The notes under the pieces were generated by a model, which did no database searches, had not been told where the DNA came from, and saw only the letters and a program-made list of their open reading frames with translations. Positions 55,493 to 58,255 of a DNA stretch of 64,000 nucleotides are shown piece by piece. Position 1 is the first letter of the stretch; the number at the start of each line of letters is the position of its first letter. Both the position numbers and the translations under genes were made by a program. The stretch lies in assembly GCF_003334385.1 (NCBI RefSeq), contig NZ_QOWN01000012.1. The stretch is one strand, 5' to 3'. Origin of the DNA: Escherichia coli (GTDB taxonomy: Bacteria; Pseudomonadota; Gammaproteobacteria; Enterobacterales; Enterobacteriaceae).

Positions 55493-55582
55493 CGTCATCT
55501 TCTCTATAAAAAAGAGCGTGGATTGGGTACAATCCCGCTCTTATCACCGCATTTTGACTAGCTCAATAAAAGAAATCAGACC

Positions 55583-56681
55583 ATGTTTGAAATTAATCCG
55601 GTAAATAATCGCATTCAGGACCTCACGGAACGCTCCGACGTTCTTAGGGGGTATCTTTGACTACGACGCCAAGAAAGAGCGTCTGGAAGAAGTAAACGCC
55701 GAGCTGGAACAGCCGGATGTCTGGAACGAACCCGAACGCGCACAGGCGCTGGGTAAAGAGCGTTCCTCCCTCGAAGCCGTTGTCGACACCCTCGACCAAA
55801 TGAAACAGGGGCTGGAAGATGTTTCTGGTCTGCTGGAACTGGCTGTAGAAGCTGACGACGAAGAAACCTTTAACGAAGCCGTTGCTGAACTCGACGCCCT
55901 GGAAGAAAAACTGGCGCAGCTTGAGTTCCGCCGTATGTTCTCTGGCGAATATGACAGCGCCGACTGCTACCTCGATATTCAGGCGGGGTCTGGCGGTACG
56001 GAAGCACAGGACTGGGCGAGCATGCTTGAGCGTATGTATCTGCGCTGGGCAGAATCGCGTGGTTTCAAAACTGAAATCATCGAAGAGTCGGAAGGTGAAG
56101 TGGCGGGTATTAAATCCGTGACGATCAAAATCTCCGGCGATTACGCTTACGGCTGGCTGCGTACAGAAACCGGCGTTCACCGCCTGGTGCGTAAAAGCCC
56201 GTTTGACTCCGGCGGTCGTCGCCACACGTCGTTCAGCTCCGCGTTTGTTTATCCGGAAGTTGATGATGATATTGATATCGAAATCAACCCGGCGGATCTG
56301 CGCATTGACGTTTATCGCGCGTCCGGCGCGGGCGGTCAGCACGTTAACCGTACCGAATCTGCGGTGCGTATTACCCACATCCCGACCGGGATCGTGACCC
56401 AGTGCCAGAACGACCGTTCCCAGCACAAGAACAAAGATCAGGCCATGAAGCAGATGAAAGCGAAGCTTTATGAACTGGAGATGCAGAAGAAAAATGCCGA
56501 GAAACAGGCGATGGAAGATAACAAATCCGACATCGGCTGGGGCAGCCAGATTCGTTCTTATGTCCTTGATGACTCCCGCATTAAAGATCTGCGCACCGGG
56601 GTAGAAACCCGCAACACGCAGGCCGTGCTGGACGGCAGCCTGGATCAATTTATCGAAGCAAGTTTGAAAGCAGGGTTATGA
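55583..56681 (+). CDS. prfB: peptide chain release factor 2, expressed through a programmed +1 frameshift: join(55583..55657, 55659..56681)
   Basis: Frame 0 gives [25 protein letters not shown] then an in-frame TGA at 55658-55660; the +1 frame continues [11 protein letters not shown]... into ORF 55800..56681 with the GGQ motif; total 365 aa. Confidence 0.9.
55646..55661 (+). other. prfB +1 frameshift site: internal SD-like AGGGGG, then TAT CTT TGA C
   Basis: AGGGGG at 55646-55651, 3 nt before the CUU slippery codon (55655-55657) and in-frame UGA (55658-55660). Confidence 0.85.
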
Positions 56682-56690
56682 GGAACCAAC

Positions 56691-58208
56691 ATGTCTGAAC
56701 AACACGCACAGGGCGCTGACGCGGTAGTCGATCTTAACAATGAACTGAAAACGCGTCGTGAGAAGCTGGCGAACCTGCGCGAGCAGGGGATTGCCTTCCC
56801 GAACGATTTCCGTCGCGATCATACCTCTGACCAATTGCACGCAGAATTCGACGGCAAAGAGAACGAAGAACTGGAAGCGCTGAACATCGAAGTCGCCGTT
56901 GCTGGCCGCATGATGACCCGTCGTATTATGGGTAAAGCGTCTTTCGTTACCCTGCAGGACGTTGGCGGTCGCATTCAGCTGTACGTTGCCCGTGACGATC
57001 TCCCGGAAGGCGTTTATAACGAGCAGTTCAAAAAATGGGACCTCGGCGACATCCTCGGCGCGAAAGGTAAGCTGTTCAAAACCAAAACCGGCGAACTGTC
57101 TATCCACTGCACCGAGTTGCGTCTGCTGACCAAAGCACTGCGTCCGCTGCCGGATAAATTCCACGGCTTGCAGGATCAGGAAGCGCGCTATCGTCAGCGT
57201 TATCTCGATCTCATCTCCAACGATGAATCCCGCAACACCTTTAAAGTGCGCTCGCAGATCCTCTCTGGTATTCGCCAGTTCATGGTGAACCGCGGCTTTA
57301 TGGAAGTTGAAACGCCGATGATGCAGGTGATCCCTGGCGGTGCCGCTGCGCGTCCGTTTATCACCCACCATAACGCGCTGGATCTCGACATGTACCTGCG
57401 TATCGCGCCGGAACTGTACCTCAAGCGTCTGGTGGTTGGTGGCTTCGAGCGTGTATTCGAAATCAACCGTAACTTCCGTAACGAAGGTATTTCCGTACGT
57501 CATAACCCAGAGTTCACCATGATGGAACTCTACATGGCTTACGCAGATTACAAAGATCTGATCGAGCTGACCGAATCGCTGTTCCGTACTCTGGCACAGG
57601 ATATTCTCGGTAAGACGGAAGTGACCTACGGCGACGTGACGCTGGACTTCGGTAAACCGTTCGAAAAACTGACCATGCGTGAAGCGATCAAGAAATATCG
57701 CCCGGAAACCGACATGGCGGATCTGGACAACTTCGACTCTGCGAAAGCAATTGCTGAATCTATCGGCATCCACGTTGAGAAGAGCTGGGGTCTGGGCCGT
57801 ATCGTTACCGAGATCTTCGAAGAAGTGGCAGAAGCACATCTGATTCAGCCGACCTTCATTACTGAATATCCGGCAGAAGTTTCTCCGCTGGCGCGTCGTA
57901 ACGACGTTAACCCGGAAATCACAGACCGCTTTGAGTTCTTCATTGGTGGTCGTGAAATCGGTAACGGCTTTAGCGAGCTGAATGACGCGGAAGATCAGGC
58001 GCAACGCTTCCTGGATCAGGTTGCCGCGAAAGACGCAGGTGACGACGAAGCGATGTTCTACGATGAAGATTACGTCACCGCACTGGAACATGGCTTACCG
58101 CCGACAGCAGGTCTGGGAATTGGTATCGACCGTATGGTAATGCTGTTCACCAACAGCCATACCATCCGCGACGTTATTCTGTTCCCGGCGATGCGTCCGG
58201 TAAAATAA
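56691..58208 (+). CDS. lysS: lysyl-tRNA synthetase (constitutive)
   Basis: 505-aa [36 protein letters not shown]... Confidence 0.95.
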
Positions 58209-58226: not shown

Positions 58227-58255
58227 AACCCCGGCAAATGTCGGGGTTTTTTTAT
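58227..58255. terminator. shared terminator for convergent lysS and idi
   Basis: ccccg gcaaatgt cgggg followed by ttttttt on the plus strand and preceded by an A-rich tract; overlaps the idi stop codon. Confidence 0.5.

Follow-up and report, generated by a model that had tools for sequence, protein, structure and literature searches.

The essential translation factor RF2 (release factor 2) is encoded by prfB, a gene that serves textbooks as the bacterial example of both programmed +1 frameshifting and translational autoregulation. The frameshift site of prfB became known in the 1980s, and annotations of public genomes already include it. In Escherichia coli K-12 the frameshift was reportedly worked out by Craigen and Caskey in 1985–86 and by Weiss et al. 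in 1987–88.

Interrupted prfB genes are found in 8,164 of 12,753 species genomes (64%) (PMC12421855). The rule that defines such a site is an RF2-specific stop codon early in the gene, which is UGA, rarely UAA and never UAG, and the consensus of the interrupted genes consists of AGGGGG, a 3-nt spacer, CTTT, TGA and C (PMC12421855). The slippery tetranucleotide, CUU-U, is nearly invariant across bacteria (PMC12421855).

How often ribosomes change frame at prfB has been measured in several ways. Ribosome profiling of the endogenous gene puts frameshifting at about 28% in K-12 and at about 47% when RF3 is deleted and termination is impaired; for RF2 of the Ala246 ‘B-type’ the figure is about 21% (PMC5373646). 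Reporters carrying the prfB site show 40–90% frameshifting, and about 10% once the Shine-Dalgarno (SD)-like element has been inactivated (PMC6815119). The mechanism needs no folded mRNA (PMC6815119). It has also been shown that the stability of codon pairing in the ribosomal E site and the level of frameshifting are inversely related (PMC2377451).

Here we analyze the prfB gene in a stretch of 64,000 nucleotides of E. coli DNA, which we call the window. The interruption in this gene almost certainly marks the canonical programmed +1 ribosomal frameshift through which E. coli prfB is autoregulated. Our own grounds for saying so are the anatomy of the sequence, the identity of the product, conservation and public annotation; the kinetics, the pairing between SD and anti-SD, the effect of the E site and autoregulation itself are taken from the literature. 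As a discovery, the site is nothing new. It does bear on the quality of annotation, for naive open reading frame (ORF) calling shortens an essential gene to 293 amino acids. The recoding site also proved to be correctly recognizable by a model reader from raw sequence.

Anatomy of the frameshift site

The elements of the site and the two segments of the gene are as follows.

55583..55657, + strand: prfB frame-0 segment, ATG and codons 1–25, the N-terminus of RF2; aligns with residues 1–25 of solved RF2 chains and is the first piece of the two-piece prfB CDS in RefSeq
55646..55651, + strand: internal Shine-Dalgarno-like stimulator AGGGGG, 3 nt 5' of the slippery CUU
55652..55654, + strand: spacer and weakly pairing E-site codon UAU (TAT, Tyr24)
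55655..55658, + strand: slippery sequence CUU U, in which codon 25 is CTT (55655-55657) and the skipped base is T 55658
55658..55661, + strand: in-frame RF2-specific stop UGA (codon 26) and the following C (55661), a weak termination context
55659..56681, + strand: prfB +1-frame segment, starting with GAC (Asp26) and comprising codons 26–365 and the stop, with the GGQ motif and Ala246

Translated in frame 0, the gene runs for 25 sense codons from the ATG at 55583 and then meets TGA at 55658-55660, which is codon 26. The +1 frame, read from the GAC at 55659, stays open for 340 codons until the TGA at 56679-56681 and contains SGAGGQH, and with it the GGQ motif. 5' of the site this frame is not open: only 7 codons past position 55584 it runs into a stop. 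Hence, with frame 0 ending at codon 26 and the +1 frame closed upstream, the whole protein cannot be encoded in any single frame.

The local sequence reads CTT AGG GGG TAT CTT TGA C, the last seven bases of which (CTTTGAC) occupy 55655-55661. The pattern AGGGGGNNNCTTTGAC, which has 13 specified bases, occurs once in the 64-kb window, where only 0.07 occurrences would be expected even with one mismatch allowed. All of the features that place a gene among the prfB-type sites are present: an early in-frame UGA after which RF2 continues in the +1 frame, a CUU U that overlaps the stop codon, a C directly after the stop and an AGGGGG exactly 3 nt upstream.

The original prediction was that the RF2 reading frame is interrupted by a UGA at codon 26, preceded by CUU and by an AGGGGG 3 nt further upstream, that the exact CTT TGA C site is retained, and that the +1 frame continues for 340 codons to a C-terminus containing GGQ. 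Direct reading of the sequence bears out each of these points. It was also expected that the frame-0 product would be only 25 amino acids long and that a naive ORF call would return nothing but a C-terminal fragment of 293 amino acids. This agrees with the mechanical ORF list, which for this gene contains only a 25-aa ORF (55583..55660) and an ATG-started 293-aa fragment (55800..56681).

We also looked for an RNA structure that might stimulate frameshifting from downstream. The 101 nt between 55640 and 55740 fold no better than shuffled sequences do (z = −0.52), and the lack of a predicted downstream fold fits a mechanism that works without folded mRNA (PMC6815119). In Rfam no family covers the frameshift site, and all matches in the window are to unrelated small RNAs.

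Identity and annotation of the product

Joining the two segments, join(55583..55657, 55659..56681), yields a product of 365 amino acids with GGQ at residues 250–252. Against two solved structures of E. coli RF2, 1gqe_A and 1ml5_Z, it aligns over residues 1–365 with E values of about 1e-240 and a single substitution each, and many RF2 chains from ribosome complexes also match it across residues 1–365. The NCBIfam model for prfB, TIGR00020, gives the joined product 525.9 bits, above its cut-off of 370. The models for RF1 score it at 305.7 and 303.8 bits, which is under their cut-offs of 400 and 423. Because the joined product aligns from end to end with solved RF2, the 25 codons in frame 0 must be the true N-terminus of RF2.

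At the identical E. coli locus, the prfB CDS in RefSeq (PGAP) is made up of two pieces (flag j2) and labelled “programmed frameshift”. Its join, when expressed in the coordinates of the window, spans 55583..56681 and is the same as ours. The RefSeq label thus supports the central claim made earlier about this gene, namely that it contains a programmed +1 frameshift. Two outcomes had been named that would have spoken against that claim. One was a failure of the upstream 25 codons to align with the N-terminus of RF2; the alignment of the join covers the full length, residues 1–365, and includes these codons. The other was a full-length RF2 that needs no change of frame, which turned out to be unobtainable, given the stop at codon 26 in frame 0 and the stop in the upstream part of the +1 frame.

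Could the two segments instead be two independent products, a 25-aa leader and an RF2 that is made by internal initiation, either behind AGGGGG or at the ATG at 55800, without any frameshifting? The AGGGGG does look like a ribosome-binding site, there is a TTG 5 nt downstream of it (55657-55659), and ORF callers do report the ATG-started ORF of 293 amino acids at 55800. However, this TTG is the sole start-like codon nearby, and it lies in the third frame, where a stop follows after 12 codons. We therefore reject internal initiation after the SD-like element. The +1 frame itself, whose ORF begins at 55800 in the ORF list, has no start-like codon (ATG, GTG or TTG) from the site up to that position, and a product that started there would be without residues 1–72 of RF2 domain 1. 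Furthermore, frame-0 residues 1–25 belong to the deposited RF2 chains that match the joined product over residues 1–365, and in other genera these residues are conserved as protein (MFEINP...LRGYL). In the original work of 1985–86 the junction peptide LRGYLDYDAK is said to have been detected in native RF2. Taken together, the evidence makes a leader and a separately initiated RF2 extremely unlikely, and we return to a single protein that is joined by a +1 frameshift.

Codon 246 of RF2 in the window is GCG (56316-56318), which encodes alanine. Ala246 characterizes the canonical, more active ‘B-type’ RF2 that is found in most E. coli, whereas Thr246 is specific to K-12 (PMC5373646). Having Ala246 and not Thr246, the window comes from an E. 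coli that is not a K-12 strain.

Deposited annotations do not always contain the frameshift. In Klebsiella aerogenes NCTC10006 (LR134124.1, 368-1249) prfB has been deposited as an ATG-started fragment of 882 nt and 293 amino acids, and the frameshift was missed.

Conservation within E. coli

RefSeq contains 5426 complete E. coli genomes, and every one of them has the locus (1401 bases), many at 100% identity. A 56-nt stretch around the site (55625-55680) shows no difference in 4411 genomes, and the other 1015 depart from it at one or two positions. In the E. coli variants that we sampled, the substitutions lie 3' of the core, where TAC is changed to TAT in codon 27 and GCC to ACC in codon 29. 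The AGGGGG is invariant in the aligned variants save for one genome, in which the run of five Gs is reduced to four. The frame-interrupted form of prfB is present in 5425 of the 5426 genomes, and the sole insertion or deletion is found in NZ_CP024650.2.

This record belongs to E. coli BH100 substr. MG2014 (NZ_CP024650.2, 159-275). Here one G of the five has been lost, which puts prfB into a single frame (…LRGIFDYD…) with Ile24-Phe25 where the interrupted gene has Tyr24-Leu25, and the gene is annotated as an ordinary CDS. No other of the 5426 genomes shares the in-frame variant. It is either a homopolymer error in the assembly or a natural isolate without autoregulation of RF2.

A frame disruption by a single base, like the one in the window, resembles a sequencing or assembly error. 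It could also resemble a pseudogenizing mutation, so that the gene would really be single-frame or dead, and the BH100 assembly with its missing G and its ordinary in-frame CDS may seem to point the same way. We reject this explanation on the grounds of conservation. The interrupted form is the one that practically every complete E. coli genome carries, only one record has the in-frame variant, and other genera and phyla show an interruption at this very codon, flanked by the same motif. RF2 is, moreover, essential, and prfB is otherwise intact. That the interruption is an error or a sign of decay is practically out of the question.

Conservation in other species

To look beyond E. coli, relatives were retrieved by similarity over the whole gene, and thus were not selected for the motif. 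They are Enterobacter hormaechei, Klebsiella aerogenes, K. pneumoniae, Salmonella Senftenberg and Aeromonas caviae. All five have a frame-0 segment of 25 codons, the core AGGGGG-NNN-CTTTGAC and a +1 frame of 340 codons. A comparison with prfB from other Enterobacteriaceae had been suggested together with the prediction: Enterobacter, the two Klebsiella species and Salmonella carry an identical TTAGGGGGTATCTTTGACTAC.

Among five enteric sequences, the window included, the site falls within an invariant run of 29 nt (gene positions 56–84). This run is only the third longest in prfB, as there are two longer ones elsewhere in the gene. In this small sample, the local conservation among enteric bacteria is by itself not exceptional; it is supportive but not decisive.

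A wider view comes from a motif scan for TAGGGGGNNNCTTTGAC in one genome per species from about 100,000 species. The scan returned at least 120 matches, a number that, being selected for the motif, measures the breadth of the site and not its frequency or prevalence. Of the 120 matches listed, at least 98 lie in prfB, where the +1 product aligns with E. coli RF2 exactly from residue 26, at 23–98% identity over the part that is available. Two more listed loci (L028 and L030) are too short to be scored, yet they have leaders that are similar to RF2. The other 20 listed matches are chance matches in unrelated sequence.

The hosts among the matches listed belong to Gammaproteobacteria, Bacillota, Clostridia, Gemmatimonadota and Deltaproteobacteria-type MAGs. 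At the listed prfB loci, RGYL or RGSL closes the frame-0 leaders, which are about 23–30 residues long. The E-site codon at the 98 listed prfB sites of other species is TAT in 46 cases, TCT in 37 and TAC in 12. It follows the lineage among these matches, with TAT or TAC in Gammaproteobacteria and TCT in Bacillota.

Some individual records deserve a comment. In Aeromonas caviae KAM479 (NZ_AP026896.1, about 250-270) the E-site codon is TGC (Cys), while two other Aeromonas species have TAT or TAC. The G:C pair in the E site of A. caviae would be expected to lower frameshifting (PMC2377451). In Psychrobacillus sp. NEAU-3TGS (NZ_JAPNOZ010000012.1, about 11591-11607, − strand) the site is canonical, and the +1 frame comprises only 30 codons, compared to 342 codons in prfB of the related P. 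soli. This suggests a second disruption of the frame in Psychrobacillus sp. NEAU-3TGS, caused by a sequencing error or by the gene having become a pseudogene.

Some records that are labelled as plasmids carry recJ-prfB-lysS as well, for example pEh5_2 of Enterobacter hormaechei (NZ_CP126871.1, 58.7 kb). Several of the PLSDB records of this kind are between 0.7 and 5.4 Mb long, and two from Enterobacter are about 51–59 kb long. They are probably chromosomes or pieces of chromosomes that have been mislabelled. The single ‘plasmid’ match in the E. coli collection is probably due to the same kind of mislabelling.

Genomic surroundings

The window is part of an E. coli chromosome, on which recJ, prfB and lysS follow one another and idi comes next on the opposite strand. 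Besides prfB, we located the following features.

56691..58208, + strand: lysS (lysine--tRNA ligase), starting 9 nt past the prfB stop
58227-58248: terminator-like hairpin 3' of lysS
35699-35882, − strand: 6S RNA (ssrS), Rfam match above the gathering threshold, 139.8 bits
34900-35050, − strand: Sib antitoxin RNA, Rfam match above the gathering threshold, 133.8 bits
49393-49470, − strand: naRNA4/CssrE, Rfam match above the gathering threshold, 75 bits
21787-21829, − strand: ES036/CssrF, Rfam match above the gathering threshold, 47.3 bits

No tRNA genes were found by ARAGORN in the 64-kb window.

The 90-nt spacer between recJ and prfB folds at −22.1 kcal/mol (z = −3.44) and contains a stable hairpin at 55512-55542 (AAGAGCG-GGATTG…CAATCC-CGCTCTT). 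There is a run of As ahead of the hairpin on the + strand and a run of Ts on the minus-strand side, and our scan flags a terminator-like site on the minus strand. The hairpin could be the terminator of recJ, or it could be a bidirectional or an antisense terminator. A simple scan of the same spacer for a consensus sigma-70 promoter found none.

Two long ORFs without stops run antisense to the genes of this region, one of 334 amino acids over prfB (55644-56648, − strand) and one of 471 amino acids over lysS (56676-58091, − strand). These are most likely ‘shadow’ ORFs that arise because of how the sense genes use their codons.

Discussion

Following the published experiments, for which prfB of E. 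coli with the identical site was used, the locus in the window would operate as follows. Ribosomes would start at the ATG at 55583, translate 25 codons and meet the UGA at codon 26. The weak context UGA-C would serve as a sensor of the RF2 concentration (PMC12421855). As long as RF2 is abundant, the UGA would be read and the 25-aa peptide released. When RF2 becomes scarce, ribosomes would pause at the UGA for longer. The AGGGGG would then pair with the anti-SD sequence of the 16S rRNA (PMC12421855, PMC6815119), the tRNA in the E site, where UAU pairs weakly, would be displaced (PMC2377451), and the tRNA-Leu in the P site would re-pair from CUU to UUU, one base forward (PMC12421855). With GAC (Asp26) now entering the A site, 340 more codons could be translated to give the 365-aa RF2. 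RF2 would thereby set the rate of its own synthesis.

One could ask whether the 25-aa product of frame-0 termination, which would be made whenever there is enough RF2, does something in the cell instead of being a mere by-product. We consider this very unlikely. None of our results support the idea, and the conservation of the peptide is fully explained by its being the N-terminus of RF2.

Readthrough or some other kind of recoding, such as a −2 shift or hopping, has next to no chance of being what joins the two frames in place of a +1 slip of tRNA-Leu: judged by the sequence alone, −2 and +1 shifts would end up in one and the same frame, but the −2 shift would add a residue, while deposited RF2 has Leu25 followed by Asp26 and no extra residue, as a slip from CUU to UUU and decoding of GAC would produce; readthrough would remain in frame 0, which encodes no RF2 downstream; and the CUU-U tetranucleotide hardly varies among bacteria (PMC12421855). 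Our search turned up nothing substantive that speaks against the canonical +1 frameshift.

The closest described system is prfB of E. coli K-12 itself. The 56-nt site of K-12 W3110 is 100% identical to that of the window, and the K-12 gene is like ours in the position of the stop codon (26), the SD-like element and its 3-nt spacing, the CUU U, the UGA-C and the gene order recJ-prfB-lysS. The only difference from the K-12 reference is residue 246 of RF2, threonine in K-12 and alanine in the window, and this residue lies outside the recoding site. The more active Ala246 protein goes along with slightly lower frameshifting, the about 21% versus 28% mentioned above (PMC5373646).

The prfB sites of other bacteria among the matches listed share AGGGGG-N3-CTTTGAC, a leader of about 23–30 codons and a +1 product from residue 26 with the window. 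They are unlike it in the E-site codon and in the sequence of the leader, both of which vary by lineage.

A more distant comparison is the −1 frameshift of E. coli dnaX, where, as in prfB, the stimulator is an SD-like element that lies within the gene, upstream of the shift, and pairs with 16S rRNA (PMC6815119). In other respects the two systems differ. The shift in dnaX goes in the −1 direction, takes place on a heptanucleotide slippery site and requires a downstream stem-loop, whereas in prfB of the window it is the stop codon that causes the pause, and the downstream sequence is not predicted to form a stable structure.
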